Positions 6,436-62,334 of a stretch of 64,000 nt of DNA are shown here, in pieces (position 1 is the stretch's first letter; each line of letters begins with the position of its first letter). The notes under the pieces were generated by a model that saw only the letters and a list, made by a program, of their open reading frames with translations, was not told where the DNA came from and ran no database searches. The stretch is from an uncultured Candidatus Saccharibacteria bacterium. Lineage in GTDB: Bacteria > Patescibacteriota > Minisyncoccia > Phycocordibacterales > CAIZLB01. The stretch covers positions 72,430 through 136,429 of the forward strand of contig CAYVEK010000001.1 in assembly GCA_964450605.1 (NCBI GenBank), in the 5' to 3' direction. Position numbers and translations under genes: made by a program.

Positions 6436-7491
6436 ATGGTAACAACCATCATCTTTCTTATAGTTCTATCAATACTTGTATTTATACATGAGTTAGGACA
6501 TTTTCTATTTGCAAAACTATTTAAAGTAAGAGTTGATGAGTTTGCTATAGGTTTTCCACCAAAGATATTTTCTTTTAAAAAAGGAGAAACCACGTATGCA
6601 TTAAACATGGTGCCTCTTGGTGGATATGTAAAGATACATGGTGAAAATCCTGATGATGTTGTTGATCCTCAAGATAGTAGAAATTTTCAAAACATATCAT
6701 GGTGGAAGCAGGTTATTGTACTTGTGGCCGGAGTTACTTTTAACGTGATCTTCGCCTGGATACTTCTTAGTATGTCTTTGATGATTGGTACTTCAAAAGC
6801 TGCTGTTGAAGGTGTACCGACACAATACGTTAAAGGTGATACGAAAGTCTTTATACAGCAAGTTATACCTGAAAGTCCTGCAGAAAAAGCGGGTATAAAA
6901 CCAGGTGATGTTATTTTGTCTGTTGATGCGGTGACGGTAACTGCGTCTGTTGAAGTTCAATCTCTTATAAAAGAAGCGGAAAAGACAGCGACTGTGGTTG
7001 TTGAAAGAGGTGGAGCAACATCAAGTCATGTTGTTACATTTGAAAAAGAAAATATGATGGGTGTAAATCTGGCTGAGGTTGGACTTGTGCAGATGCCACT
7101 ATTTCCTGCGTTGAAACATGGATTTCTTGGAACTATATATTTAACAGAAGAGATAGGAAAAGGAGTGACTTCATTTTTTAGTAAAGTGTTTGTAGGAGGT
7201 GCATCTTGGGATCAGGTGTCTGGTCCGGTAGGTATTGCTAAAAGTGTTGGAGAGGCGAGTCGAGATGGTTTTTCTGCACTACTCTTTATTAGTGTGCTGA
7301 TTTCTATATCTCTTGCCATCATGAACATTCTTCCATTTCCAGCACTTGATGGAGGACGTATAGTTATTGCTCTTATAGAAGGTGTGATTCGAAAGAAGAT
7401 AAAACCAAGTATAGTGAACACTATAAACTCTATCGGCTTCATTGTTCTTATTGGTTTGATGTTAGTTGTTACATTCAAAGATATTTTCTAG
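6436..7491 (+). CDS. rseP: RIP metalloprotease RseP (site-2 protease, M50 family) with an internal PDZ domain
   Basis: HELGHF HExxH motif in TM1, PDZ segment (GIKPGDVILSVD), and C-terminal LNILPFPALDGGR motif. Confidence 0.85.
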   Translation: MVTTIIFLIVLSILVFIHELGHFLFAKLFKVRVDEFAIGFPPKIFSFKKGETTYALNMVPLGGYVKIHGENPDDVVDPQDSRNFQNISWWKQVIVLVAGVTFNVIFAWILLSMSLMIGTSKAAVEGVPTQYVKGDTKVFIQQVIPESPAEKAGIKPGDVILSVDAVTVTASVEVQSLIKEAEKTATVVVERGGATSSHVVTFEKENMMGVNLAEVGLVQMPLFPALKHGFLGTIYLTEEIGKGVTSFFSKVFVGGASWDQVSGPVGIAKSVGEASRDGFSALLFISVLISISLAIMNILPFPALDGGRIVIALIEGVIRKKIKPSIVNTINSIGFIVLIGLMLVVTFKDIF

Positions 7492-7504
7492 TATAATTTA
7501 GTCT

Positions 7505-12393: not shown

Positions 12394-12443
12394 CAATCCC
12401 ACCTCATTTGCCATCCACCCATAAACCTGTATAGTATACCTAT

Positions 12444-13534: not shown

Positions 13535-14218
13535 ATGAAAATCGTTACGCTAAGTGGTTGGTTGGGTGGTTTTGGTGAGAATCCTCAGGATCCCACCTGG
13601 TCTTTGGAAGAGAGGGGTGTCCCTGTGTCGCACAAATTTGAAATTAGGCGTAGTAGGTATTTTGTTGAGGGTACCAAACTGCTGATAAATGACAGTGTTC
13701 GGATGGAGGGTGATTTCATTCCAGATGGTTATGTTTACAAACATACTGATCGTTGGAATGGTTTTGAGTTTCGTCCAGATACTGTTTCGCGCAGGGATCC
13801 AGGTTTTATTTACGTGTACATCAGGACACAGGATTTTGTTCCAGGTGTAGTCGCAGAAGCTTTCTACAAAAGACCTGTGTATGAAGATACACCTTACAAA
13901 CTGGGTATAAGACAAATCTGGCAGTTGAATTCTGGTGAAAGTTTGATCATCAGATGGTGCGGTTATTACTGGAAAGTATCAAACTTCAGTCGAAACATTT
14001 TGATTGAGGAATTCTTCCGCGATGGCAAGAGGAGGGTCCTTGTTGGTAATCTGGAGCGTGCTCCGATTGAGATTCAAGAGATCTATGCCATGCAAGAACT
14101 TCGTTTTCTCGAGACTCGTTATGCGGCCGTTTGTAGGCGGCTTGGCAGAAGAGGTGCTCCCACATCTCGTTACTGCAGGATCGGTTGTGGACAGTACGGT
14201 GACCCACTCCCACCCTGA
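13535..14218 (+). CDS. Hypothetical protein (227 aa) in a GC-rich islet. It is ORFan-like and rich in Arg, Tyr and Trp.
   Basis: Long ORF in a segment of about 50% GC against about 36% around it. Amino-acid composition is unlike the Lys-rich neighbours. Followed by its own terminator. Confidence 0.45.
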   Translation: MKIVTLSGWLGGFGENPQDPTWSLEERGVPVSHKFEIRRSRYFVEGTKLLINDSVRMEGDFIPDGYVYKHTDRWNGFEFRPDTVSRRDPGFIYVYIRTQDFVPGVVAEAFYKRPVYEDTPYKLGIRQIWQLNSGESLIIRWCGYYWKVSNFSRNILIEEFFRDGKRRVLVGNLERAPIEIQEIYAMQELRFLETRYAAVCRRLGRRGAPTSRYCRIGCGQYGDPLPP

Positions 14219-14232
14219 ACACTCAACGCGTG

Positions 14233-14279
14233 CCCGACCGTGGACCTCGTCCGCGGTTGGGCGCTTTTTTTATTTTACA
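14233..14279 (+). terminator. Rho-independent terminator
   Basis: gcccgacc ... ggttgggc forms an 8-bp stem (one G-U pair) followed by gcttttttt. Confidence 0.6.
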
Positions 14280-14329
14280 TACTATGCTAACGTTTCTTAT
14301 GGCGCCGAACGAACGACGCGCGAACTTTT

Positions 14330-15154
14330 ATGATAACAACGAACATAATCACGGCACTCCTGCACGGCTGTGGTACTGTTCGCCATAAGCCGGGCCTTGT
14401 GCTCGATTTTAAAAAACAGTCCATGATTGGATTGTCACGTTGTCGAGTAGACCCACCTATGGGTGAACTGGCAATAATGAACAGCGAAGGCGTCCTCTCT
14501 AGTCGCAGAAACTGTGACCGGGCAGGATATGTACTGTTCACGGGTAATCCAAAGCCTGTGATTACGGTGCAGATGTTTACAGGCCGAGGAGACCTGTTGC
14601 GAGCACAGCCTTTGAGGCGTAAATCTTGGCGATGCTGTCACGAATTTCTGGAACTCTGGAGAGTTCCGGACGGACATAGACTTTTTCTTGTCGTCCGTAA
14701 AAACGGAAAGGATGATGAGTGGAATGTTCGTGTTCAAGATGGGACTATCACCATGGTCTCCAGAGAGCAACAGATCATCGAAGGTCATGCAGGCAACGAG
14801 AAGGGTGCGAAAGCTGAGCAGATGTTTATCAAGGCTTGGCAACATGAGCGTGACTATCATGCTCACAGAGCGACGCCTTACGAAGATCTGCATGAGGAAA
14901 CCGATGCCTGGATCTGTTCACTCAGAGAACCGTGGAGAAAGTATCGGGTACAGATTAAGTCTGGAAAAGGCCATGATCCTTACCCCTTCTATCGACGAGG
15001 CCTTGTGCTGGTTGAGATAGATGTCCACAAAGACACTCCTGCCACTATTCGCTTCAAAACACATTATGCGATAAGGGAGTTCGACCGAGTGAATCCAAAA
15101 TTTTTTGGCGGAAGGCTTCGGCGGATATTTCGACCTCACCGCAACCGCCACTAA
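14330..15154 (+). CDS. Hypothetical protein (up to 274 aa) in the same GC-rich islet. Start is uncertain; Mets at 14330, about 14423 and about 14465 are possible.
   Basis: Long ORF, about 50% GC, His/Arg/Trp-rich. It is in the same reading frame as the upstream ORF but separated by a stop and a terminator. Ends immediately before a perfect terminator. Confidence 0.4.
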   Translation: MITTNIITALLHGCGTVRHKPGLVLDFKKQSMIGLSRCRVDPPMGELAIMNSEGVLSSRRNCDRAGYVLFTGNPKPVITVQMFTGRGDLLRAQPLRRKSWRCCHEFLELWRVPDGHRLFLVVRKNGKDDEWNVRVQDGTITMVSREQQIIEGHAGNEKGAKAEQMFIKAWQHERDYHAHRATPYEDLHEETDAWICSLREPWRKYRVQIKSGKGHDPYPFYRRGLVLVEIDVHKDTPATIRFKTHYAIREFDRVNPKFFGGRLRRIFRPHRNRH

Positions 15155-15157
15155 CAG

Positions 15158-15189
15158 GCGCAGCTGTCTCCAGACAGCTGCGCTTTTTC
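15158..15189 (+). terminator. Rho-independent terminator
   Basis: gcgcagctgtc-tcca-gacagctgcgc is a perfect 11-bp stem followed by tttttc. Confidence 0.8.
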
Positions 15190-15218
15190 TTATTCCTAAA
15201 ATATGCTACACATATACT

Positions 15219-16676
15219 ATGAGTTACACACCTGTCATCGGTCTTGAGATACATGCCGAATTGCATACAAAAACAAAGATGTTTTGTGGATGTAAAAACG
15301 ATCCTTTTGATCGTCGACCAAATGTAAACGTATGTCCTATTTGTCTTGCACATCCAGGAACTCTGCCTGTATTAAATAAGTCTGCTATTTCTCATGTTCT
15401 TAAAGTTGGACTTGCACTTGATGCAGAGATGGCGGATTTTACAGAGTGGGATAGAAAAAACTATTTTTATCCAGACATTCCAAAAGGGTATCAGATTAGT
15501 CAGTACGCGTATCCGCTTGTACAAAAAGGAAAACTATTTGTAAAAAATGCAAAAGGTGAAGATGTGCCTGTTGGTATAACACGTATTCATCTTGAAGAAG
15601 ATACGGCGAGTTCTATACACGATCAAGGTGAGTACAGTCTTGTAAATTATAACCGAGCAGGTGTTCCGTTGATGGAGCTTGTAACAGAACCTGATATACG
15701 AGACGGAAAGACAGCCGGAAACTTCGGTCGTGAATTACAATTACTACTACAAACACTTGGAGTATCTGAAGCAAACATGGAAATGGGTCAGATGCGTGTT
15801 GAAGTAAACATTTCTATACACAAAGAAGGAGAACCTTGGGGAACAAAAGTTGAAATCAAAAACCTCAACTCATTTCGTTCAGCTGAACGGGCTATCGAGT
15901 ATGAGATAACACGACAAGCGGCACTTCTAGATGCTGGAGAAAAAGTAATACAAGAAACTCGTGGTTTTGATGAAAGTAGTGGAAAAACATTTTCACAACG
16001 TGTTAAAGAAAATGCAAATGATTATCGATATTTTCCAGATCCCGATCTTCCAAAACTATATATATCCAAAGAGTTCAACCTGGAAGAATTAAGAAAAACA
16101 TTGCCAGAACTTCCGTGGCAGAAACGAGCACGATATATGTCTCTTGGAGTTAAAGCTGAAGATGCTGAGATGTTTACCAATGATTCATTTTTCGGAGTAT
16201 ATGTCGATGAGATTTTGTCTCGAGACAATCTTTCAACAAAAGCAAAAACTTTGGCGATAAACTATATATCGAGTGATATTGCCGGTATTTTGAAAAAAGA
16301 GACAGAGAGACTTTCAACTCTTGACAGTTATATTGACAAGCGACATTTGGCGGAGATTGTATCCATGATAGAAAAAGATGAGCTCTCTTCACGAGGTGCA
16401 AAAGATCTTATTGCATTTCTTTGGAAAAATGAAGAAGTTGTGGCGCGAACTGTTCGCGAGATTGCTGATGAAAAAGGCTTGATACAAAAAAATGATCCAG
16501 AGGCCGTTAAAGCAATCGTACAAAAAGTTATCGATGCAAATCCAGAACAGGTTGCTGGATTCAAGGCCGGTAAGGAAGCTCTACTTCAATATCTTGTAGG
16601 TCAGGTCATGAAAGAAGGAAAAGGTGCAGTAAACCCTGCACTTGCACAGCAGATGTTGCGGGAGATGATAGGTTGA
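15219..16676 (+). CDS. gatB: Asp-tRNA(Asn)/Glu-tRNA(Gln) amidotransferase subunit B
   Basis: MSYTPVIGLEIHAEL...MFCGC...PNVNVCPICLAHPGTLP is a canonical GatB N-terminus with a C-terminal YqeY-like domain. Start set at the Met 114 nt inside the ORF. The stop codon is TGA. Confidence 0.9.
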   Translation: MSYTPVIGLEIHAELHTKTKMFCGCKNDPFDRRPNVNVCPICLAHPGTLPVLNKSAISHVLKVGLALDAEMADFTEWDRKNYFYPDIPKGYQISQYAYPLVQKGKLFVKNAKGEDVPVGITRIHLEEDTASSIHDQGEYSLVNYNRAGVPLMELVTEPDIRDGKTAGNFGRELQLLLQTLGVSEANMEMGQMRVEVNISIHKEGEPWGTKVEIKNLNSFRSAERAIEYEITRQAALLDAGEKVIQETRGFDESSGKTFSQRVKENANDYRYFPDPDLPKLYISKEFNLEELRKTLPELPWQKRARYMSLGVKAEDAEMFTNDSFFGVYVDEILSRDNLSTKAKTLAINYISSDIAGILKKETERLSTLDSYIDKRHLAEIVSMIEKDELSSRGAKDLIAFLWKNEEVVARTVREIADEKGLIQKNDPEAVKAIVQKVIDANPEQVAGFKAGKEALLQYLVGQVMKEGKGAVNPALAQQMLREMIG

Positions 16677-16775
16677 CAGAAACTTTTGTTGAGAATATAC
16701 TGTGACTGTGCTTGGGAGATGGTAGTGATACCAGTCTCATATCGGCATTCAGCTGAAAACCAGGCATTATAAAAA

Positions 16776-16805
16776 ACGCATCTCTACGAAGGGATGTGTT
16801 TTTTA
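16776..16805 (+). terminator. Rho-independent terminator after gatB
   Basis: acgcatctc tacgaagg gatgtgt hairpin followed by ttttt. Confidence 0.55.
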
Positions 16806-16807
16806 CT

Positions 16808-25215: not shown

Positions 25216-25276
25216 TAAAAAAGAAAAAAGAAAAAGCGGTGCGCCGCGGACCTGTGAGGTTCGAGTGCGCACCGCT
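25216..25276 (-). terminator. Rho-independent terminator for the gene at 25293..26024
   Basis: agcggtgcgc ... gcgcaccgct is a perfect 10-bp stem, followed on the minus strand by a long T-run (plus-strand A-run at 25216-25234). Confidence 0.75.
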
Positions 25277-25292
25277 CGTGGGATGAAGGAGA

Positions 25293-26000
25293 TTACTTCT
25301 TTTTTTCTACCGGCGTACGGGTCGGTAAGAAGGAGCCGAATGAGGCATTGATCCCAATGACTTCAAATGTCTTGGCGAGACTGAACAAGGCTTCATACCG
25401 TGCCCGCAGTCTTCTGCGGGCAGGTTCATCTTGTTCGGTTTCGGCGGTTCCGAGGTCAGTTCCGGCTACCCGGAGGGTATTTTGAATAGTGTCTTTAAAA
25501 CACTGTACCCAACCTCCGTTGGCAGGTACAAGGTTTAAAAACTTGTGATCTCCATACTTGAGTGTCGTCTCGAGACTGTGGAGAAAATCAGAAGCGATGA
25601 TCAATTTTTTGGTTTTTGACCACTGCTCCGCAACCTCCATTATCGTCTTGCCGGGACGGATTCTTTGAGCCTCGCGGAATCCGACCACAATTCGGACGAT
25701 AAAAAATATCGCTCCGATTAATGCGGCCCCTGCAATCCAGGGCGTGCGAGTCCCCCAGAAGATGTACGTCAAGTACATCATTCCGCAGTAGATTAGGAAA
25801 TTCCAGAGAATTCCGCGGATCTTTTTCTGGTATTTCTGGGTTTTCTGCAGGCACTCCTCCGCAGGGGTGCCGAAGCGGCGGAGCTCCACTTTTTCCTGGT
25901 TTTTACTCCAGGATACAGTGAAGATAATGCTGAGGAACTCCCAGATCATCTGGGAGGCAACTTCGTTGTTATAGTGAGGTTGTTTTTCGGGCGTAGCCAT
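25293..26000 (-). CDS. Hypothetical membrane protein (about 235 aa from the ATG) in a GC-rich islet
   Basis: About 50% GC, two TM helices, no recognisable domain. The ORF-track start at 26024 is a TTG, so the ATG at 26000 (MATPEKQ) is preferred. Confidence 0.5.
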   Translation of the reverse strand: MATPEKQPHYNNEVASQMIWEFLSIIFTVSWSKNQEKVELRRFGTPAEECLQKTQKYQKKIRGILWNFLIYCGMMYLTYIFWGTRTPWIAGAALIGAIFFIVRIVVGFREAQRIRPGKTIMEVAEQWSKTKKLIIASDFLHSLETTLKYGDHKFLNLVPANGGWVQCFKDTIQNTLRVAGTDLGTAETEQDEPARRRLRARYEALFSLAKTFEVIGINASFGSFLPTRTPVEKKK

Positions 26001-26149
26001 GGTGGCAGTTGGTTGTGTTGTCAAGGTGTGCTTATCAGTTACGAAAAGGGGACATTTCCCACTCAGCTATGCTTCAATCGCATAGATCTAAGCTTTCATT
26101 TCGCGGAGTACAGAAGCACGCTGTATGCCATATATATTATATCATATAT

Positions 26150-26200
26150 TATACCACAAAGTCAAGTCCACCCACCCCAACCAACCACCACCCCAAACCC
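26150..26200. repeat. C-rich (plus) / G-rich (minus) tract with G-quadruplex potential, in the divergent intergenic region
   Basis: ccacccaccccaaccaaccaccaccccaaacccc. The minus strand carries four or more G3-4 runs. Confidence 0.5.
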
Positions 26201-26211
26201 CTCAAAATCCC

Positions 26212-26246
26212 TTGCAAAATCTACAAAATATAGTATACTCAGCGTA
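26212..26246 (+). promoter_or_regulatory. Putative sigma-70 promoter for rpmF
   Basis: TTGCAA, a 16-nt spacer, then TATACT, located about 10 nt upstream of the ORF. Confidence 0.45.
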
Positions 26247-28157: not shown

Positions 28158-28227
28158 ATATCTTGACCAAGATTGTTCGATATGGTGTGCTTGCGTCTCG
28201 TAAGATTTTATGATATAATCAACTGCA

Positions 28228-49327: not shown

Positions 49328-51841
49328 ATGATATCCATGAAAAGGTTCCTGAAAAACGCTACAGTCCTTGTTTTTTTCTGTGTTCCTTTTTTTAATACTC
49401 AGGCCTATGGAGAGTTTATGATGACTATAAACACAGATCCAAACGGCTCAAATGATTCAACTATAACTATACCTACTAATCCTAACTATGCGCCCAACTA
49501 TACAGTAGATTGGGGCGATGGAAATACTGATTCAGGTTTAATAGGTGATGCAAGCCATACGTACGCGACTGCTGGTACGTATCAAATTCTCATATCTGGA
49601 AATATTGGCGGATTGTATATTAACAACACTACAGGCATTAAAGAAAAAATTGTTTCTGTTGATCAGTGGGGAACTATACAATGGTTGAGTATGGAAAGAG
49701 CTTTTGCCGGTGTTCCGAGTCTAACTATTAATGCTGTAGATACACCCAACCTAAGTCAGGTGACGGATATGTCATATATATTTGCGAATATACCAACTTT
49801 TTTAGATGCAGGCGGACAGATAAATAATTGGAATACAAGCACTATTCAAACTTTAGAAGGCGCTTTTGTAAATGGTGGGTTTAATGCTGACATATCAGGC
49901 TGGAATGTTTCGAATGTGACTAATATGATAGCGACATTCTCTGGGGCAATATCTTTTAATCAGAATATATCAAACTGGACCACATCAGCTGTGACAAATA
50001 TGCAACAAATGTTTCAAGGAGCAACCTCTTTTAACCAGCCTATTGGTGGTTGGAATACTGGAAATGTAACTTCAATGCAGGGTATGTTTGCAAGTGCATC
50101 AAGTTTTAATCAAACATTGAGCTGGAATACAACTAATGTAACTGACATGTCTTCCATGTTTGAGGCGGCAAGTTCTTTTAATAGTAGTCTTTTTTTTGAT
50201 ACTTCAAATGTAACCAACATGTCATACATGTTCCACGAAGCGATAAATTTTAGTCAATCCTTGTATTTTTATACAAACAAAGTTCAAAACATGTCGTATA
50301 TGTTTGCAGATACTTTATATAACGACAACAGTATAACAGGGTGGAACACTGCAACTACAACAGATATGTCGTATATGTTTGCTAGAAACAGTGCATTTAA
50401 CCAGAACATATCAAACTGGAACACTGGAAAAGTAACAAATATGCAAGGCATGTTTCAAGACGCTATCTCTTTCAATCAAAACATCTCATCTTGGAATACT
50501 GCAAATGTAACTGACATGTCAACTATGTTCAGTGGTGCAACAAGTTTTAGCGCAAATATAGGTTCTTGGAATGTGTCCAAAGTTACAAATTTTTCATACA
50601 TGTTTTCAGCAGCCACAGCCTTTAATATTGATCTGAGTTCTTGGAATACAGCATCGTCAACAGCAATAAATGGGATGTTTGCAAATACAAACTTCAATCA
50701 ACCTCTTAACTCTTGGAATGTTTCTTCTGTAGAACAAATGTCAGATGTTTTTTATCAAGCTTCTTCTTTTAATCAACCTCTGAGTAATTGGAACACTTCA
50801 CATGTTACAAATATGACCAATATGTTCTACGGAGCGTCTTCATTTAACCAAGATCTAAGTTCTTGGAACTTTGAAGCTGTGAATTCTATTGATGATTTTT
50901 TGCGAGATGCCAATATGTCATATATTAATTATGATAAATTGCTAGAGGCTTGGGATACTCAAAATACCCAAAATGGTTTGAGTACGTATGTGTCTAACGG
51001 TTTGTATTGTAATAGTACTTCGTACAGATCACATCTGATTCTTACTAAAGGTTGGAGTATTATAGATGTGGGTACACCTGTAGGATGTCCAGCGCCATAT
51101 GTTGTAAATGTTACATCACCAAATGCGGATAGAAATTATGTGACAGGTGAGACAATTACGATTCAAGTTGTTTTTAGTGAGCCTGTAAATGTTGGAAGTG
51201 GTGGGGCTCCAATATTGCAACTAAGGACAGGAACATCTTCTGCGATTACTGCAAATCTGGTCGGAGGAGGTAATGGTACACATACACTTACGTTTTCTTT
51301 TGTGGTTTCTGCGTCACACAACAGTACTGACCTACAATACTTATCAACCTCTGCCCTGGTTGCCACCATAGAAGATGTTGCAACCAGCTCGCTTCCTGCA
51401 AACACAACCCTTCCAGCACTCAACTCTGTAAATAGTCTTGGAGGCAATAAAAATATCACAATCAATCAAACCGCTCCAGTTGTTTCTACAAGTAGTCCAG
51501 CACAGGCTCAAACAAACTCATGGTTCGGTGCAACTTCTTTCGGGGGAACTATAGAAAACATAAAACCTGCCGGAACGTGCAATGATTTTGTATTCAAAAA
51601 ATCACTTAAACTTGGACAAAAAGATAAAGAGGTTGTGGTGATAAAAAAGTTTTTAAACAAAAATCTTGGAACAAAACTAAATTCAAATACTGTGTTTGAC
51701 AAAGCAACTCAAAAAGCGGTTATTCGTTTTCAAGAAAAATATAGAAAAGATATACTAGAACCGACTCGGCTAAAGAAGGGAACGGGTATGTGGTATAGTG
51801 CAACTATTAAAAAAGCAAATCAGTTGGAGTGTGGTAAATAA
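49328..51841 (+). CDS. Surface protein with about 20 BspA-type/DUF285 leucine-rich repeats and a C-terminal peptidoglycan-binding-like domain
   Basis: Signal peptide. Repeating units of about 25 aa of the form NxxxMxxMFxxAxxFNQxIxxWNTSxVTNM. The C-terminus LKLGQKDKEVVVIKKFLN...FDKATQKAVIRFQEKY resembles PG_binding_1. Confidence 0.75.
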   Translation: MISMKRFLKNATVLVFFCVPFFNTQAYGEFMMTINTDPNGSNDSTITIPTNPNYAPNYTVDWGDGNTDSGLIGDASHTYATAGTYQILISGNIGGLYINNTTGIKEKIVSVDQWGTIQWLSMERAFAGVPSLTINAVDTPNLSQVTDMSYIFANIPTFLDAGGQINNWNTSTIQTLEGAFVNGGFNADISGWNVSNVTNMIATFSGAISFNQNISNWTTSAVTNMQQMFQGATSFNQPIGGWNTGNVTSMQGMFASASSFNQTLSWNTTNVTDMSSMFEAASSFNSSLFFDTSNVTNMSYMFHEAINFSQSLYFYTNKVQNMSYMFADTLYNDNSITGWNTATTTDMSYMFARNSAFNQNISNWNTGKVTNMQGMFQDAISFNQNISSWNTANVTDMSTMFSGATSFSANIGSWNVSKVTNFSYMFSAATAFNIDLSSWNTASSTAINGMFANTNFNQPLNSWNVSSVEQMSDVFYQASSFNQPLSNWNTSHVTNMTNMFYGASSFNQDLSSWNFEAVNSIDDFLRDANMSYINYDKLLEAWDTQNTQNGLSTYVSNGLYCNSTSYRSHLILTKGWSIIDVGTPVGCPAPYVVNVTSPNADRNYVTGETITIQVVFSEPVNVGSGGAPILQLRTGTSSAITANLVGGGNGTHTLTFSFVVSASHNSTDLQYLSTSALVATIEDVATSSLPANTTLPALNSVNSLGGNKNITINQTAPVVSTSSPAQAQTNSWFGATSFGGTIENIKPAGTCNDFVFKKSLKLGQKDKEVVVIKKFLNKNLGTKLNSNTVFDKATQKAVIRFQEKYRKDILEPTRLKKGTGMWYSATIKKANQLECGK

Positions 51842-52421: not shown

Positions 52422-52527
52422 GTTTTGTGGGTGGTTTACTGAAAAGTGTCATACTGATCAGCTTTTACACCATATAATATATATACAAAAAAGTAAACCC
52501 TCAGCCAAACCTTGCGGTTGGTGAGGG

Positions 52528-52809
52528 TTACTCGATTTTGTATTCTGTCTTGAACTGGTACCCGAGGTACCCGTACTGAGTTTTGAGTCGGTCTACTCTG
52601 AGAAAAATGTCTTCAAGCTCTTGCGAGCTCGAAACAGTTCCCATATAGATTTGACCTTTTCTTTTCAGTACAGTATCTGTCCACTTGATGGTGATATCAA
52701 GGTGAACAGGCTTTTCCTCAACTACCGGTTTTAGATACAGAAGCGGGCCGTATACCATATCCGCCAAAATAGGCAGACACAGCAAGGCGACAAAGAACAT
52801 GTGTTTCAT
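52528..52809 (-). CDS. Small secreted protein (93 aa)
   Basis: Signal peptide MKHMFFVALLCLPILA. A hairpin with a T-run lies downstream on the minus strand (52495-52535). Confidence 0.45.
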   Translation of the reverse strand: MKHMFFVALLCLPILADMVYGPLLYLKPVVEEKPVHLDITIKWTDTVLKRKGQIYMGTVSSSQELEDIFLRVDRLKTQYGYLGYQFKTEYKIE

Positions 52810-52855
52810 GAGGGTGCTGTGGTTTCGACTCAGTATAGCATGATATAATGGCTAT

Positions 52856-54131: not shown

Positions 54132-54548
54132 ATGAGAAGAAAGTATAATCCCGGACTCGTGAAAGTAGTTGTAAAGAGATCAAGCGCAGGACTCGGACTA
54201 TTTGCAGGAGAGGACATCAAAAAAGGAACATGTATCATTGAGTACATCGGTCGACAGATAAAAGGGCAAGAAGAATATACCAGCAACAGTAAATATCTTT
54301 TTGAAGTAAATGCTCGTATGACTATAGATGGTCGAGACAGATCTAATACTGCTCGATATATCAATCATTCATGCAGACCTAATTGTGAGACTGAAACATA
54401 CAAAAGAAGAGTGTATATATTTGCGTATAAGAACATAAAAGCAGGGGAGGAACTTACATATGATTATGGAAAAGAATATTGGGGTGAGCATATTAAACCG
54501 ATAGGGTGTCGGTGTGTGAAGTGTCAGGAGAAAAAGGAAAACAAATAA
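54132..54548 (+). CDS. SET-domain protein-lysine methyltransferase with a post-SET Cys motif
   Basis: GLGLFA...NHSCRPNC...ELTYDY...GCRCVKC are canonical SET and post-SET motifs. 138 aa. Confidence 0.8.
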   Translation: MRRKYNPGLVKVVVKRSSAGLGLFAGEDIKKGTCIIEYIGRQIKGQEEYTSNSKYLFEVNARMTIDGRDRSNTARYINHSCRPNCETETYKRRVYIFAYKNIKAGEELTYDYGKEYWGEHIKPIGCRCVKCQEKKENK

Positions 54549-55059
54549 CAGGGTGTCCAAGCATGTCGTATGCTATGCAGGAAGGTTTGTATTTGCTAAA
54601 GAAAATCTCTCCCTCAGTACTCCAAATCGTTGCGTAAAAATTTTGAATCGCAAAACCTTGAGACAAGGCGTATTTTAAATTTTCATTAAATAGTTTTCTT
54701 CCTAGTCCGTGCTTTTGATATTCTGGCAGTATCGCTATAGAGCAAATATATACATTAATATTTTTATTAGTACTTTTATCTATAATTGATTCCATGTGTC
54801 CTTCACGCACAACTCCCTTTTTTAATTGTTCTATACCAAAAGCTGATATTTTTTGCGCATCAATATATCCCACGATAACATCTTTTTCATTTAAAGCGAC
54901 ATGGCAAAAAGAAGATGTATCTATGTTGTACCAATAATCAACATCTCCGGTATCATCTCGAGATAATTCGCCAAAGATTTTAGAGTCCAGGTCTATAAGT
55001 TTCTGTATAAGCTCTTTTTGATTTTTAAATTCAGATGAGTTTTTTATAACCATTGTCAT
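54493..55059 (-). CDS. GNAT-family N-acetyltransferase
   Basis: YQKHGLGRKLF acetyl-CoA-binding motif. The ORF-track start at 55122 runs through the terminator hairpin, so the Met at 55059 is preferred. Confidence 0.6.
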   Translation of the reverse strand: MTMVIKNSSEFKNQKELIQKLIDLDSKIFGELSRDDTGDVDYWYNIDTSSFCHVALNEKDVIVGYIDAQKISAFGIEQLKKGVVREGHMESIIDKSTNKNINVYICSIAILPEYQKHGLGRKLFNENLKYALSQGFAIQNFYATIWSTEGEIFFSKYKPSCIAYDMLGHPVICFPFSPDTSHTDTLSV

Positions 55060-55075
55060 GTTGTGTATTGTAACA

Positions 55076-55114
55076 AAAATTTCCCCACCCACGGCATGGT
55101 GCCGGGGTGGGGTG
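55076..55114 (-). terminator. Hairpin-repeat terminator, copy 1: ccccaccc-acggcatggtgccg-gggtgggg, with a T-run on the minus strand
   Basis: Perfect 8-bp outer stem plus 5-bp inner stem. A near-identical copy lies at 55487-55525. Confidence 0.7.
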
Positions 55115-55118
55115 AGGA

Positions 55119-55433
55119 TCATGACTCACTGCTCTTATCCCAAGGTTTTGGGAAGCAGAAGTTGAATGTAAGTTCCTCGGGCCCAGTTCTGAAGCCGAGT
55201 TGGAAGAAGTCGAACGATCCGTCGCGACCTCTTCGCATAAACTTCAATGCATCTGTTGCGTCGACCAGGAACAGGCCCGGATGGTCATTTTCGGCCGGTA
55301 ACAAGATGCCTGAGGCTCCTTGCAACTTGAATGGTGTTGTTGTGATCCAGGATGTCACCTGGGTTATGATGGAGGTGTTTGGAGGAACGGTGATGGTCCT
55401 CCATTCGACTGCGGGTGATGATGGCGTGCTCAT
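55119..55433 (-). CDS. Small GC-rich ORFan (105 aa from the ATG) with its own consensus promoter and terminator
   Basis: Minus-strand TTGACA (55470-55475), a 17-nt spacer, TATAAA (55447-55452), then ATG at 55433 with a leader of about 6 nt. Copy-1 hairpin terminator lies just downstream. About 50% GC. Confidence 0.35.
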   Translation of the reverse strand: MSTPSSPAVEWRTITVPPNTSIITQVTSWITTTPFKLQGASGILLPAENDHPGLFLVDATDALKFMRRGRDGSFDFFQLGFRTGPEELTFNFCFPKPWDKSSES

Positions 55434-55439
55434 AAAGTG

Positions 55440-55476
55440 CAAAGTATTTATACTATTTAAGATTCTTAGTGTCAAT
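55440..55476 (-). promoter_or_regulatory. Consensus sigma-70-type promoter (TTGACA-17-TATAAA) for the 105-aa ORF
   Basis: Read directly from the minus strand: ttgacactaagaatcttaaatagtataaa. Confidence 0.55.
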
Positions 55477-55486
55477 TATCATAAAA

Positions 55487-55525
55487 AAAATTTCCCCACC
55501 CACGGCGTGGTGCCGGGGTGGGGTG
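55487..55525 (-). terminator. Hairpin-repeat terminator, copy 2 (ccccaccc-acggcgtggtgccg-gggtgggg)
   Basis: Differs from copy 1 by a single nucleotide (A to G) in the loop. The 8-nt A-run 55483-55490 gives the T-run on the minus strand. Confidence 0.7.
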
Positions 55526-55539
55526 TGAGAGAGAGAGGA

Positions 55540-55941
55540 TCAGGGTGTTCGGAAGAGTAAGTGGCCGGGGCGGGTCACCTTAAATCCAAACAAATAATCC
55601 TGAATCGCTCGAGGACTATCGATGACGCTGAAACGCCATTTCTTGCCCGTGGTGTCCCTTGCGGATATAACGTACTGATGATGTACGTTTTCCAGGGTTT
55701 TCGGGGTCTGGTCGAGGATTTCTCCTTCGACCGTGTACTCCCCAATAGGGAGCTCATGAACCCCAACGATGAACGAGGGTTCGATTTCTTCCCTGACAGC
55801 TACCTTTGCAGGTGCTGTAGGGGCGTTGTGGAATGACGGCTCTTCAGGGTGTTCTGTTATTCCCCAAATAAGCCAAATCATAAATCCTGTTGCCGCGACA
55901 AGTAGGGTGAGTATCACGGCCGGTTTTTTGATAAAGTGCAT
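55540..55941 (-). CDS. Membrane-anchored GC-rich ORFan (about 133 aa from an ATG positioned for leaderless translation)
   Basis: Minus-strand TTGACA (55972-55977), 17-nt spacer, TATGGT (55949-55954), with ATG at 55941 seven nt after the -10. One TM helix. Terminated by copy-2 hairpin. Confidence 0.4.
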   Translation of the reverse strand: MHFIKKPAVILTLLVAATGFMIWLIWGITEHPEEPSFHNAPTAPAKVAVREEIEPSFIVGVHELPIGEYTVEGEILDQTPKTLENVHHQYVISARDTTGKKWRFSVIDSPRAIQDYLFGFKVTRPGHLLFRTP

Positions 55942-55980
55942 AAAAACAACCATACACTTATATTTTGGATATGTCAAGCT

Positions 55981-56688
55981 CTATCTAAACCCATGCACCA
56001 AAAACTCTTTATTTCCATCACCGCCACGTATCGGAGAATCTATAACCTCAAGATTTTTCCATCCTGCATTTTCTAAATCTTTTAAAATATCTGCTATGCA
56101 TTTTTGTGTTGCTTCTTCTGACACCACAACTCCTTGTTTATTTAAATAATCTTGTCCAACTTCAAACTGGGGTTTGATAAGTAAAACTATATGTCCTATG
56201 TGTATAAAACGATCGATGTGAGGAATTATTTTTCGCAGTGATATAAAAGAGACATCGCATACGATTATGTCAACATGTGTGTCAAGAGAAAAATTTCGTA
56301 TATCAGTTTTTTCATGTAACTCTATGTGACCATCTTGACGAAGTTCTGTATCAAACTGATCCGTACCAACATCGACTGCGATTACTTTCTGTGCGCCGTG
56401 TTGTAAAGCGCAATCAGTAAAACCGCCTGTAGAAGATCCGATGTCGAGTATTGTTTTTCCTTGGACATCGATAGACCAATGTTGTATGGCTTTTTCTAGT
56501 TTTTCTCCGGCACGACTTACAAAACGCGGAAGTTCAGTTACTTGTATTTGATCATGTTCATGTACGGTTGTATTTGTTTTTGTTACTGCTGATCCGTTGA
56601 CCAACACTAAACCATCCTCGATGAGACGTTTTGCTACACTTCGACTTTTTACTATTTGTCGTTCAACTAAGGCTATATCTAAACGCAT
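55981..56688 (-). CDS. tlyA: TlyA-family rRNA (cytidine-2'-O)-methyltransferase (S4 RNA-binding plus FtsJ-like MTase)
   Basis: N-terminal S4 domain (RLDIALVERQIV.SRSVAKRLIEDGLVLVNG) and the MTase motif ILDIGSSTGGFT. Confidence 0.85.
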   Translation of the reverse strand: MRLDIALVERQIVKSRSVAKRLIEDGLVLVNGSAVTKTNTTVHEHDQIQVTELPRFVSRAGEKLEKAIQHWSIDVQGKTILDIGSSTGGFTDCALQHGAQKVIAVDVGTDQFDTELRQDGHIELHEKTDIRNFSLDTHVDIIVCDVSFISLRKIIPHIDRFIHIGHIVLLIKPQFEVGQDYLNKQGVVVSEEATQKCIADILKDLENAGWKNLEVIDSPIRGGDGNKEFLVHGFR

Positions 56689-58011: not shown

Positions 58012-58596
58012 ATGAGCATGGAAAAACAGCCACTTTTTGAGAAATATTTTATGCCAAATACATCATATCACGCAAAGTTGATAGATGTAGAATTTGATTT
58101 TAACTTTCAAAATACATGGGTAGTAGATATTCCTTTTTCTGGAAAATTATACATTCAAGATCGTGTGTTTGATCTTCCACAAATATCAAAAAAAATACTC
58201 CCACTCAGTATAGGCTGTGTTGTATCTGAAGCGTATATACCAATGAACCCAAATGGTGTGCTGGTGGGCGCTGTTGGTATTCATATAGAGTCAACTGGTT
58301 TAAGTCGTTTTGAAAAGATAGGTTCTGTTCGAGTTGATTCTGGTATGCTCCAGGTATCGAACATTGATGTTTCATCTATTGATAGAAGCATGTTCAAAGA
58401 AACATACAGTGATGAGTATTCGCATGTACATGAAATAGATGGAAAAGTTGTGGTTGATATATCTGCAGGTTTTGGTGATGGTGAATATCCGGTGTATGTC
58501 GCATATGGTTCTGATAACACGGTGTGTGCGATATATGTTGATTTTCTGTTGTTTGATAGACCGGATGTGGTGGAGAAACTTATTAGTAGAAGTTAA
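58012..58596 (+). CDS. Hypothetical protein (194 aa), possibly DUF4241-like
   Basis: SAGFGDGEYPVYV motif. No other recognisable domain. Confidence 0.4.
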   Translation: MSMEKQPLFEKYFMPNTSYHAKLIDVEFDFNFQNTWVVDIPFSGKLYIQDRVFDLPQISKKILPLSIGCVVSEAYIPMNPNGVLVGAVGIHIESTGLSRFEKIGSVRVDSGMLQVSNIDVSSIDRSMFKETYSDEYSHVHEIDGKVVVDISAGFGDGEYPVYVAYGSDNTVCAIYVDFLLFDRPDVVEKLISRS

Positions 58597-60892: not shown

Positions 60893-60967
60893 ATGGGGTT
60901 AGTATAGCATAAAACAAAAACCCACCACCTCGCGATGGTTGGGTTTCGCGTGGGAGTGGGGTGGGGA

Positions 60968-61198
60968 TTATTCTCTGGAGGCTCGTTCACACGAGGTTGA
61001 ACAATATCCGAAGCCTTGATGCGGTGGTACAACACGGTTGCACCCTTGGAGCGCACACATTCTGATGTGTTCATGACCAGAGGATAGCCACCCTCTATTG
61101 TTACAGGTATGACAACCTTGTCCGTTGCAGTGACTACATTGTCCTGCATCATCGGGGTAGTTCCGATCCTTTGGAATTTGAGTATGTTGAGGGTTCAT
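60968..61198 (-). CDS. Cys-rich zinc-ribbon-like small protein (76 aa) in a GC-rich islet
   Basis: CSHCNGQGCHTC ... CALQGC ... CSTSC give four Cys pairs. About 52% GC. A hairpin and T-run lie downstream on the minus strand (60915-60965). Confidence 0.4.
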   Translation of the reverse strand: MNPQHTQIPKDRNYPDDAGQCSHCNGQGCHTCNNRGWLSSGHEHIRMCALQGCNRVVPPHQGFGYCSTSCERASRE

Positions 61199-61251
61199 GC
61201 ACTACTACTTTATATACCCACAGTGTATTTGTCAATTTATAGATATATACT

Positions 61252-61830
61252 ATGGGTATGAAAGAAACTCTCGCCATCATTGCTACTGTACTTGCCATCA
61301 TTGGAAATGTCTCATATCTGAAAAATGTTATTAAAGGCAAAATAATCGCTCATCCATATACATGGTTTGTCTGGTCTATTGTCTCAGCGGTTACTTTTTT
61401 CGGAGGATTGCAAAAGGGTGCGGGCATAGGAGCGTTGCCTACAGGTGTTGCTGAAGGTTTTACAATTTTGATTTTTATTTTTTCTTTAAAATATGTATTT
61501 GGTAAACATAAAACAGAGCACATAAAAAGAGTAGATACATATTTTTTAATAACGGCATTGCTTGGAATTATTCCTTGGATCATTACTCGCGATCCGACTG
61601 TATCTATTATTGTGGTCGTATGTATTGATCTAGTAGCTTTTGTACCAACACTGCGTAAAACATGGTTTAACCCAGAAACAGAGAAACCAACTCTGTATGA
61701 AATGAATATTGCCCGTCATACACTTACGCTTTTAGCACTTCAGACATATAACATTGCAACCACATTACACTCTGTTGTCATGATTTGTATAAATGCAGTT
61801 ATGGTTGGTTTTGTGAGGAGGGGGAAGTGA
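61252..61830 (+). CDS. Integral membrane protein (192 aa, 5-6 TM), unknown function
   Basis: Hydrophobic helices throughout. Confidence 0.5.
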   Translation: MGMKETLAIIATVLAIIGNVSYLKNVIKGKIIAHPYTWFVWSIVSAVTFFGGLQKGAGIGALPTGVAEGFTILIFIFSLKYVFGKHKTEHIKRVDTYFLITALLGIIPWIITRDPTVSIIVVVCIDLVAFVPTLRKTWFNPETEKPTLYEMNIARHTLTLLALQTYNIATTLHSVVMICINAVMVGFVRRGK

Positions 61831-61835
61831 GTTGT

Positions 61836-61864
61836 TTGACATATCTACTATTTTATGATATAAA
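61836..61864 (+). promoter_or_regulatory. Consensus sigma-70 promoter TTGACA-17-TATAAA
   Basis: ttgacatatctactattttatgatataaa, about 55 nt upstream of the lipoprotein ORF. Confidence 0.6.
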
Positions 61865-61917
61865 CACTATGCCGCTGTTTTTAACAACAACCAAATACAC
61901 TATGGCGGCACCTTGAT

Positions 61918-62244
61918 ATGAAAACTACGCTCCTTCTCCTGGCTGCAACGTGCAGCATCCTCTCTTCCTGCTCTCACCTCAGTGACCGGGGGAAACCCCT
62001 CACCCAGGTCGAAAGCTCCCGGCTTTTCGCCGGAGACCTCAGCCCGGCTGAGCGGCGTATCTTCTTCTGTGAGCGTGAGCTCACGGGGGCCGAGCGTGAA
62101 AAGCTCAATCAAGGTCCGCCCATCTACCAGCATACCGACCACGGGTCTATCATGGTCGGGGGGAGTCGGATCAACCTCCACAGCATGGAAGAGGTCAAGG
62201 CCGGCTGGGCCCGCGCCACGGCACCCAGCGAGCTCCGACCTTAG
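61918..62244 (+). CDS. Small lipoprotein (108 aa) encoded in a 58%-GC islet
   Basis: MKTTLLLLAATCSILSSC is a lipobox (L-S-S-C). Consensus promoter upstream and perfect terminator downstream. GC content far above the genome background. Confidence 0.5.
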   Translation: MKTTLLLLAATCSILSSCSHLSDRGKPLTQVESSRLFAGDLSPAERRIFFCERELTGAEREKLNQGPPIYQHTDHGSIMVGGSRINLHSMEEVKAGWARATAPSELRP

Positions 62245-62268
62245 GGTCCAGAGCCTTCCAAAACTCAT

Positions 62269-62309
62269 CGCCACATTTCCTTCGGGAGATGTGGCGGTTT
62301 TTCTTTTTC
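62269..62309 (+). terminator. Rho-independent terminator
   Basis: cgccacat-ttccttcgggag-atgtggcg followed by gtttttcttttt. Confidence 0.8.
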
Positions 62310-62334
62310 ATTTTTAAACGTACAATATATACAT

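Follow-up and report, generated by a model that had tools for sequence, protein, structure and literature searches.

Phage morons are autonomous units of promoter, gene and terminator that are inserted between conserved phage genes (PMC3594210). Here, we describe two adjacent small genes—open reading frame (ORF) A and ORF-B—whose organization resembles that of morons located in a chromosome. They occupy a variable slot between the conserved genes tlyA and SET in a 64-kb stretch of DNA, hereafter the window, from an uncultured Candidatus Saccharibacteria bacterium (contig CAYVEK010000001.1), and were compared with metagenome contigs that carry close relatives of this tlyA (L002-L009; collectively, the relatives). 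As in morons, each unit combines a single small cargo gene of deviant guanine-cytosine (GC) content with its own predicted promoter and factor-independent terminator, and is present or absent between relatives of otherwise conserved gene order. Unlike morons, however, the units reside in a bacterial chromosome between housekeeping genes (rumA-tlyA and SET), with DUF4230 among the neighbors, and not in a phage or prophage, the locus yielding neither PHROGs hits nor matches in phage and viral collections. Moreover, the same two cargo families recur at the same site across deep divergence, unlike recent additions.

Integron cassettes and attC arrays—including the integrase-less clusters known as CALINs—are likewise short, single-ORF tandem units that end in hairpins and vary in content between strains. 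Yet cassettes are promoterless and read from a common promoter, Pc, alongside intI and attI, whereas each unit here has a promoter of its own. An attC site is an imperfect palindrome of 57-141 nucleotides (nt) with R and L boxes and RYYYAAC/GTTRRRY cores, whereas the hairpins here consist of a nearly perfect 30-nt GC stem followed by a T-run. Also unlike integrons, the locus comprises only two units with two cargo families, and the scanned genes include no integrase. Palindromes of the repetitive extragenic (REP/BIME) type share with the hairpins that near-identical copies lie just past stop codons. The hairpin occurs, however, in two copies in 64 kb at a single locus and in the relatives only at the orthologous place, a distribution that is not dispersed in the sequence searched and speaks against the REP-like element considered as a counter-explanation by an earlier reading of the letters alone (the sequence-only reading).

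By analogy, the locus behaves as a miniature replacement-type flexible genomic islet, as exemplified by surface-antigen loci: both show conserved flanks, deeply divergent alleles and variable content at one address. It differs in being tiny (0.4-1.4 kb) and in consisting of single-gene insulated units of uncharacterised families, which are at most candidates for surface exposure. Taken as such, it is an accessory-gene hot spot of a real but fairly ordinary kind. The reading we favor, at a probability of about 0.6, is that of a hypervariable accessory locus between conserved tlyA and SET, in which small genes diverge or are replaced within conserved boundaries under diversifying selection with allele exchange.

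Anatomy and coding status of the two units

The arrangement of signals around ORF-A and ORF-B (Table 1) supports two self-contained monocistronic expression units, each made up of a putative promoter, one ORF and a predicted intrinsic terminator. On the upstream side, the variable slot is anchored by the conserved tlyA, which lacks a terminator. The next gene after the ORF-A unit encodes a GNAT acetyltransferase (Pfam) with its ATG at 55059; the position after hairpin copy 2 that matches the extended -10 box of this gene reads TATGAT.

Table 1 Features of the tlyA-SET locus and comparable features elsewhere in the window (aa, amino acids).
Feature	Position	Strand	Remarks
tlyA	55981-56688	-	S4 plus FtsJ rRNA methyltransferase; stop codon TAG 55983-55981
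P_B, -35 hexamer TTGACA	55972-55977	-	starts 3 nt past the tlyA stop; conserved in L002-L004 and L009
P_B, -10 hexamer TATGGT	55949-55954	-	spacer 17 nt; 7 nt to the ORF-B ATG
ORF-B (B family)	55540-55941	-	133 aa plus TGA; ATG at 55941, stop TGA 55542-55540
Hairpin copy 2	55483-55523	-	stem-loop 55494-55523, AAA, T8; predicted intrinsic terminator of ORF-B
P_A, -35 hexamer TTGACA	55470-55475	-	promoter geometry conserved in relatives
P_A, -10 hexamer TATAAA	55447-55452	-	spacer 17 nt; 13 nt to the ORF-A ATG
ORF-A (A family)	55119-55433	-	104 aa plus TGA; ATG at 55433, stop TGA 55121-55119
Hairpin copy 1	55075-55112	-	stem-loop 55083-55112, AAA, T5; predicted intrinsic terminator of ORF-A
Extended -10, TGtTACAAT plus 7 nt	55060-55075	-	putative promoter of the GNAT gene; overlaps the T-tail of hairpin copy 1
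-10 box before ATG, example	7490-7504		
-10 box before ATG, example	12429-12443		
-10 box before ATG, example	28212-28227		
-10 box before ATG, example	52840-52855		
GC-rich unit	13535-14271	+	private terminator
GC-rich unit	14330-15188	+	private terminator
GC-rich unit	25231-26170	-	236-aa ORF; leader of ~100 nt behind TTGACT-18-TATAAT
GC-rich unit	52487-52809	-	private terminator
GC-rich unit	60916-61240	-	TTGACA-17-TAAAGT, ATG 8 nt on; 76-aa Cys-rich protein; own terminator
GC-rich unit	61836-62302	+	TTGACA-17-TATAAA, 53-nt leader; 108-aa ORF; own terminator

Much of the layout had been anticipated by the sequence-only reading: its two minus-strand ORFs of about 50% GC, its TTGACA hexamers with exact 17-nt spacing and its pair of hairpins differing at one base all recur at the same positions in Table 1. 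The length it gave for ORF-B (~133 aa) is likewise correct, and the 105 aa of ORF-A become 104 plus a stop codon. A start codon 6-7 nt behind the -10 element holds for ORF-B and fails for ORF-A, the -10 hexamer of ORF-B departs from the TATAAA type assigned to both, and P_B begins just beyond tlyA instead of being embedded in its 3' end.

The two 30-nt hairpins differ at one loop base (copy 2, CCCCACCCCGGC-ACCAC-GCCG-T-GGGTGGGG; copy 1, the same with loop ACCAT), and two such copies in the window compare with 0.00 expected in shuffles. The stem comprises 12 pairs plus one bulge, the bulged base being a T. Folding energies range from -25 to -27 kcal/mol, far below those of shuffled sequence (z = -3.9 and -4.9), with -26.3 kcal/mol (z = -4.9) for copy 2 and -27.2 kcal/mol for copy 1. 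Beginning 6 and 16 nt past the stop codons and tailed by AAA plus T5 or T8, both hairpins fit a rho-independent (intrinsic) terminator by sequence and probably act as such. The repeat as a whole extends to 49 nt at 92% identity and reaches back to the stop codons, both ORFs ending in TGATCCTC. Behind ORF-B, a (TC)n run, the hairpin, AAA and T8 are followed by TATGATAA and then by the TTGACA of P_A.

Copies of the hairpin were confined to the tlyA-SET locus: two in the window, one in 20.7 kb of L006 and none in 9.3 kb of L007. Searched as the pattern CCACCCCGGCANNNNGCCGTGGGTGG, the hairpin had no match in viral or Joint Genome Institute (JGI) metagenome DNA collections, and its only match in 185,579 reference genomes fell in an unrelated GC-rich Thermomicrobiales contig, where it lacks a T-run and has a different context. 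The family of identical hairpin cassettes implied by the sequence-only reading thus did not emerge from the window and relatives, and other GC-rich ORFs of the window end in different terminators (see below). Separately, a C-rich tract (CCACCCACCCCAACCAACCACCACCCCAAACCCCTC) lies at 26167-26215 (+), in the intergenic region, flanked by divergent genes, that precedes the L32 gene; strings like CCCCACCCC, comparable to this tract, also occur in the locus hairpins and in a terminator at 60916-60960.

The region has no excess of promoter-like hexamer pairs (13 observed against 13.6 expected). P_A and P_B are credible as promoters because their geometry is conserved across relatives, not because of hexamer enrichment: TTGACA, exactly 17 nt and then TAT recur at 9/9 promoter occurrences (window plus six related loci), with spacers that vary. 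Presumably, then, both are active. With 7 nt between -10 box and ATG, the ORF-B mRNA is predicted to be leaderless, and ORF-A would have a leader of ~5-7 nt without a Shine-Dalgarno sequence. In relatives, P_A-type promoters are followed by a leader of 27-33 nt (29 nt in L005) containing GCACCTTAACAAC, and the leader motif GCACCTT(A/G)(A/C)CAA is common to L005, L009 and L006 irrespective of whether the downstream ORF is B or A. A 10-mer common to both ORF starts, TGCACTTTAT, is at chance level, ~0.7 being expected in 1.2 kb by our own estimate.

Coding status was assessed as the ratio of nonsynonymous to synonymous divergence (omega, NG86 method) in all six frames against homologues in relatives. 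Omega was 0.25 for ORF-B versus L002 (69% aa identity) and 0.19-0.23 for ORF-A versus L008 (86%) and L005 (56%), and the sense frame was the lowest of the six in either case. By this substitution pattern, ORF-A and ORF-B are true coding genes. GC-rich islands in AT-rich genomes are otherwise a classic signature of structured non-coding RNAs, and the private promoters and terminators of these GC-rich segments, together with the lack of protein homologues in general databases, would suit such RNAs. We consider this explanation extremely improbable: each ORF occupies the whole stretch between the first ATG and the terminator of its transcript, all five other frames have a higher omega, amino-acid motifs are kept at 30-38% identity in both families, and the locus has no Rfam match even at an E-value of 1 or below. 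On the plus strand opposite ORF-A, an ORF of 165 aa was judged non-coding, as the omega of its frame is 0.43, compared to 0.19 in the sense frame.

Neither protein resembles the other (E = 7.4), and paralogy of ORF-A and ORF-B was rejected. Only the boundaries are duplicated by this comparison, the cargo is not; of the duplicated, self-contained module postulated by the sequence-only reading, the self-contained units and their paralogous boundaries remain. ORF-B has a KK motif and, behind it, an N-terminal hydrophobic helix predicted to be a signal anchor (residues 8-28; Kyte-Doolittle maximum 2.29 at residue 8), followed by a low-complexity linker rich in Pro, Ala and Glu and by a C-terminal beta domain of ~75 aa with LPIGxY. 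Its AlphaFold2 (AF2) model, which recovers the helix at 8-28 and a beta domain at 58-130, has a predicted local distance difference test (pLDDT) score of 68 and suggests an N-in, C-out membrane anchor with an extracytoplasmic beta domain. ORF-A has no hydrophobic segment, is predicted to be mostly beta (AF2 pLDDT only 54) and is probably a small soluble protein. The structure prediction that the sequence-only reading had proposed for both proteins thus provided models, and neither model gave a significant fold match.

Homologues are known only from a few related metagenome contigs, always downstream of tlyA. The B family (L002-L004, L006 and L009/P0124) aligns around the motifs LPIGxY, D.TP and F.V..G..R, and the A family (L008, L005/L007 and L009) around W.I.P..T.I..Q.TS. 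A word-indexed search of 5.8 billion proteins returned nothing for ORF-A and only the protein itself for ORF-B; an exhaustive HMMER search with ORF-B added one relative, P0124 (34% identity, E = 3.6e-6). Among 1.84 billion cluster representatives, searched with ORF-B only, there was no further homologue. No match for either protein was obtained in phage, plasmid or viral collections, in Pfam, NCBIfam, PHROGs or PADLOC, or at the level of folds in PDB sequence-profile and Foldseek searches, and nothing resembling the B family or the hairpin was present in the metagenome collection. ORF-A is also absent from a 15-billion-sequence protein collection with all start variants tried, given which gene finders appear to skip it. 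Both small protein families defined here were previously unrecorded.

Content and divergence of the slot in relatives

The conserved order reads HATPase, rumA, tlyA, variable slot, SET, a 207-aa gene and DUF4230 onwards. In the window, the slot comprises P_B-B-hairpin, P_A-A-hairpin and GNAT. L002-L004 (tlyA 94% nt identical to the window) have P_B, B and the hairpin behind tlyA; codon 26 of their B, a Trp codon (TGG) in the window, is an in-frame TGA. In L008 (89% nt identical), tlyA is followed by a 45-nt spacer, P_A, A and a hairpin identical to copy 1, and then directly by the end of SET; L005 and L007 share the spacer and P_A, here in front of a deeply divergent, AT-richer A allele. The 618-kb contig L006, whose tlyA is 66-67% identical to that of the window at the aa level, carries a P_A-type promoter, B and the hairpin, with the SET stop codon following directly. 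In L009, P_B with a B remnant of 32 aa and the hairpin come first; behind them, a P_A-type promoter precedes a full second B (P0124) and, after another 19 nt, an A-like ORF. Thus, B is missing from L008 and the examined parts of L005 and L007, A from L006, and GNAT from L006 and L008.

The GNAT gene (54493-55059, -) lies between hairpin copy 1 and SET, a space missing from L006 and L008, in which the tail of the hairpin borders on the SET stop codon. In the window, GNAT and the convergent SET gene (54132-54548, +) share 56 nt at their 3' ends. The region is otherwise collinear with L006, except for an 837-aa gene (49328-51841, +) and a 194-aa gene (58012-58596, +) that have no counterpart at the syntenic positions. 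On L010, whose tlyA is more distantly related (53% identity), there is neither synteny nor a B or A gene. Named tlyA relatives at ~50% identity belong to Paceibacterota and Saccharibacteria, and DUFs typical of the Candidate Phyla Radiation (CPR) are present. Together with the 618-kb contig of a relative, these features suggest that the host, an AT-rich bacterium with a small genome, probably belongs to the Patescibacteria/CPR.

Reassignment of TGA, as the TGA opposite a Trp codon in L002-L004 might indicate, was rejected, this codon terminating 9 of the 64 long ORFs of the window. The first B copy of L009 (1073-1171) is a 32-aa hydrophobic stub with a promoter and terminator that are still perfect. 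Both this stub and the interrupted B of L002-L004 may be either decaying copies or a functional mini-peptide.

Small size, fast evolution and frequent degradation are typical of toxin/antitoxin or toxin/immunity pairs, and a membrane-anchored B next to a soluble A could represent one of them: the genes are adjacent in the window and 19 nt apart in L009, both are small and diverge rapidly, and B is pseudogenised in L002-L004 and L009. However, because A and B each occur alone—A without B in L008 and also on the examined L005 and L007 contigs, B without A in L006—they do not constitute an obligate two-gene toxin system. In the window, separate promoters and an intervening terminator set them apart, and the family and fold searches listed above, PADLOC included, returned no toxin or other match. 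This makes a toxin pair very unlikely.

Slot genes diverge faster than the gene that anchors them. Between the window and L002, the synonymous and nonsynonymous divergences (dS and dN) of ORF-B amount to 0.73 and 0.185, compared to 0.16 and 0.03 for tlyA of the same pair; for ORF-A versus L005, dS is 1.6, compared to 0.40 for tlyA. ORF-A versus L008, with a dS of 0.30, is near tlyA (0.39). At the level of sequence divergence, this is the signature of alleles that are older than their flanks or that were replaced independently of them. A similar picture is given by L009 and L006, whose tlyA genes are 92% identical in nt and whose B genes are only 38% identical in aa.

In composition, ORF-A (GC 0.52) and ORF-B (0.50) stand out from the window (0.38) and from tlyA and GNAT (0.36-0.37), and even more so at third codon positions (GC3), with 0.54-0.59 for the units versus 0.23-0.30 for neighbor genes and a window median of 0.28. 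Given such values, and given that each unit brings its own promoter and terminator and is present in some relatives and absent from others, the units could be recent horizontal acquisitions from a GC-richer donor, that is, ordinary islets retaining donor composition. Recent import is argued against because GC richness has been retained at this one address through deep divergence: the GC of the units in relatives is 0.47-0.51 with the exception of the AT-richer L005 A allele, and this includes lineages in which tlyA is only 66% identical in aa and its synonymous sites are saturated. As the same families occupy the same site at similar GC across this divergence, the units are old residents. Moreover, the protein, phage, plasmid, viral and metagenome searches described above revealed no donor, and the promoters are in the host's own style. 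Recent acquisition is therefore an improbable explanation. The lasting GC richness might stem from selection on the mRNA, from alleles imported repeatedly or from a recombination hot spot with GC-biased gene conversion; as GC3 stays high over deep divergence, the units are a clean case for testing whether or not such conversion operates in bacteria.

The varying combinations of units in the same slot, and B genes as different as those of L009 and L006 behind the same promoter type, might also point to mobile mini-cassettes: promoter-ORF-hairpin units that are moved or swapped by recombination at the hairpin, either through a dedicated recombinase as at integron attC sites or with hairpins and promoters as portable homology arms. 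In line with this, the edges of the units fall on the TTGACA hexamer and on the tail of the hairpin, and 9/12 stem pairs are invariant among relatives. There is no covariation, changes being confined to the loop and end pairs; the stem sequence itself is kept across deep divergence, bulged T included, beyond mere pairing. Still, the one other window terminator compared with L006 also turned out to be fairly conserved, to a broadly similar degree. Pfam revealed no integrase or transposase among the genes scanned (51.9-56.7 kb and some elsewhere, a minority of the window genes) or in the precomputed hits for L006. Nor are there attC cores, as the GTTACAA after hairpin copy 1 breaks the GTTRRRY consensus and nothing similar follows copy 2. 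With a hairpin confined to one locus and just two cargo families ever seen in the slot, we regard mobile cassettes as unlikely.

Instead, a hypervariable accessory locus with fixed boundaries would account for these observations as follows. The slot would carry members of two lineage-restricted families, the membrane-anchored B and the small soluble A. A sigma-70-type promoter (TTGACA, 17 nt, TATNNN) would fire at, or a few bases ahead of, the AUG; the mRNA would be translated without a Shine-Dalgarno sequence, like those of most genes of this genome; and transcription would end at the strong hairpin and its U-tract. The twin promoters and hairpins would be paralogous boundaries of the units, inherited from an ancestor common to the related lineages. 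That their duplication predates the split is suggested because a hairpin after the first B gene (B1) and a hairpin at the SET end are found in both deep lineages. From five short contigs and one long one, the simplest layout linking all observed states would be tlyA / P_B-B1-hairpin / P_A-(B2)-A-hairpin / SET. In the window genome, B2 would be missing and P_A would drive A directly via a shortened leader, and other lineages would have lost B1, B2 or A or carry a broken B1. Because the ORFs change much faster than the core genes on either side, whether by divergence or by replacement, we propose diversifying selection with allele exchange, possibly acting on envelope or host-interaction proteins. 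Should B-family proteins lie at the cell surface, the tlyA-SET slot would serve well to tell strains apart and would be a candidate factor in interactions with hosts or phages among organisms not yet cultured alone.

Several points weigh against this reading. Promoter use, start sites and termination are predictions. On these mostly short contigs, an alternative to the ancestral layout, in which B was duplicated late in the L006/L009 lineage, is about as parsimonious. B1 may be decaying rather than diversifying, as the codon-26 TGA of L002-L004 and the stub of L009 indicate, and the high dS could stem from a locally raised mutation rate or from shifting GC instead of allele exchange. No fold or family match from any of the searches above backs a role in the envelope or in host interaction. 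Finally, this reading does not account for the lasting high GC3 of the units. A bolder version would address the latter: conserved promoter and hairpin might serve as portable recombination arms or sites that swap envelope-protein alleles at fixed slots in Patescibacteria—an integrase-independent, promoter-bearing analogue of integron cassettes—with the cargo kept GC-rich by GC-biased gene conversion against the strong AT bias of the genome. The evidence for such cassette exchange and gene conversion is circumstantial, and we consider it a long shot.

Start sites and GC-rich units across the window

Leaderless organization, with the -10 box directly before the start codon, has been described for Actinobacteria and Deinococcus-Thermus. 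In 37 of the 58 window genes, a TANNNT box, often TGn-extended, lies 4-12 nt before the ATG (mode 6-8; examples in Table 1), compared to 13/58 in the control window, and a Shine-Dalgarno core precedes only 3/58. Because of this prevalence, the near-leaderless start does not mark the two units but appears to be a style of the whole genome, most mRNAs of which are apparently leaderless. In the bacterial groups named above, too, a TANNNT box that is often TGn-extended sits 6-8 nt ahead of the ATG, and a Shine-Dalgarno sequence is lacking; here, by contrast, the style would be genome-wide in a probable Patescibacteria host, and ORF-A has a short leader. Standard gene callers handle both this style and the GC-rich small ORFs of the lineage poorly, which is a lesson for annotation.

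Insulation extends to other GC-rich genes. A private strong terminator follows 8/9 genes with a GC3 of at least 0.40 and 1/59 of the others (Fisher p = 1e-8), and several GC-rich window ORFs also have a full TTGACA-17 promoter. At least six further GC-rich ORFs without known relatives (ORFans) end in private terminators (Table 1), each hairpin being different; the six had no family match in Pfam, PHROGs, PADLOC or NCBIfam. L006 shows the same GC bimodality of genes as the window. As the locus illustrates, even a genome of ~0.6 Mb or more still keeps a compartment of insulated, fast-turning-over accessory genes that is compositionally distinct from the core.

Some of these units merit individual mention. 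The private terminators of the ORFans of 227, 274 and 236 aa (13535-15190, +; 25231-26170, -) are very strong (-21 to -31 kcal/mol). Pfam gives a sub-threshold match to DsbD_2 (E = 0.008) for the 236-aa ORF, and the other two have no family match. CxxCxGxG-like repeats in the 76-aa protein recall the zinc fingers of DnaJ, and a counterpart of 71 aa, differing by indels, is conserved in L007. A lipoprotein-like signal (LSSC) is found in the 108-aa ORF, which has a GC of 0.62 and a GC3 of 0.74; its unit and the adjoining 192-aa gene (61263-62327) have no counterpart in L007.

At gathering score, the 64-kb window holds no tRNA, rRNA or any Rfam family. At 16673-16806 (+), a TTGACA-17-TATACT promoter overlapping the end of gatB precedes ~100 nt without an ORF of more than 17 aa, followed by a hairpin and T6. 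The corresponding 99-nt RNA, which has no Rfam match, folds at -43.3 kcal/mol (z = -7.8) and is a candidate small RNA.

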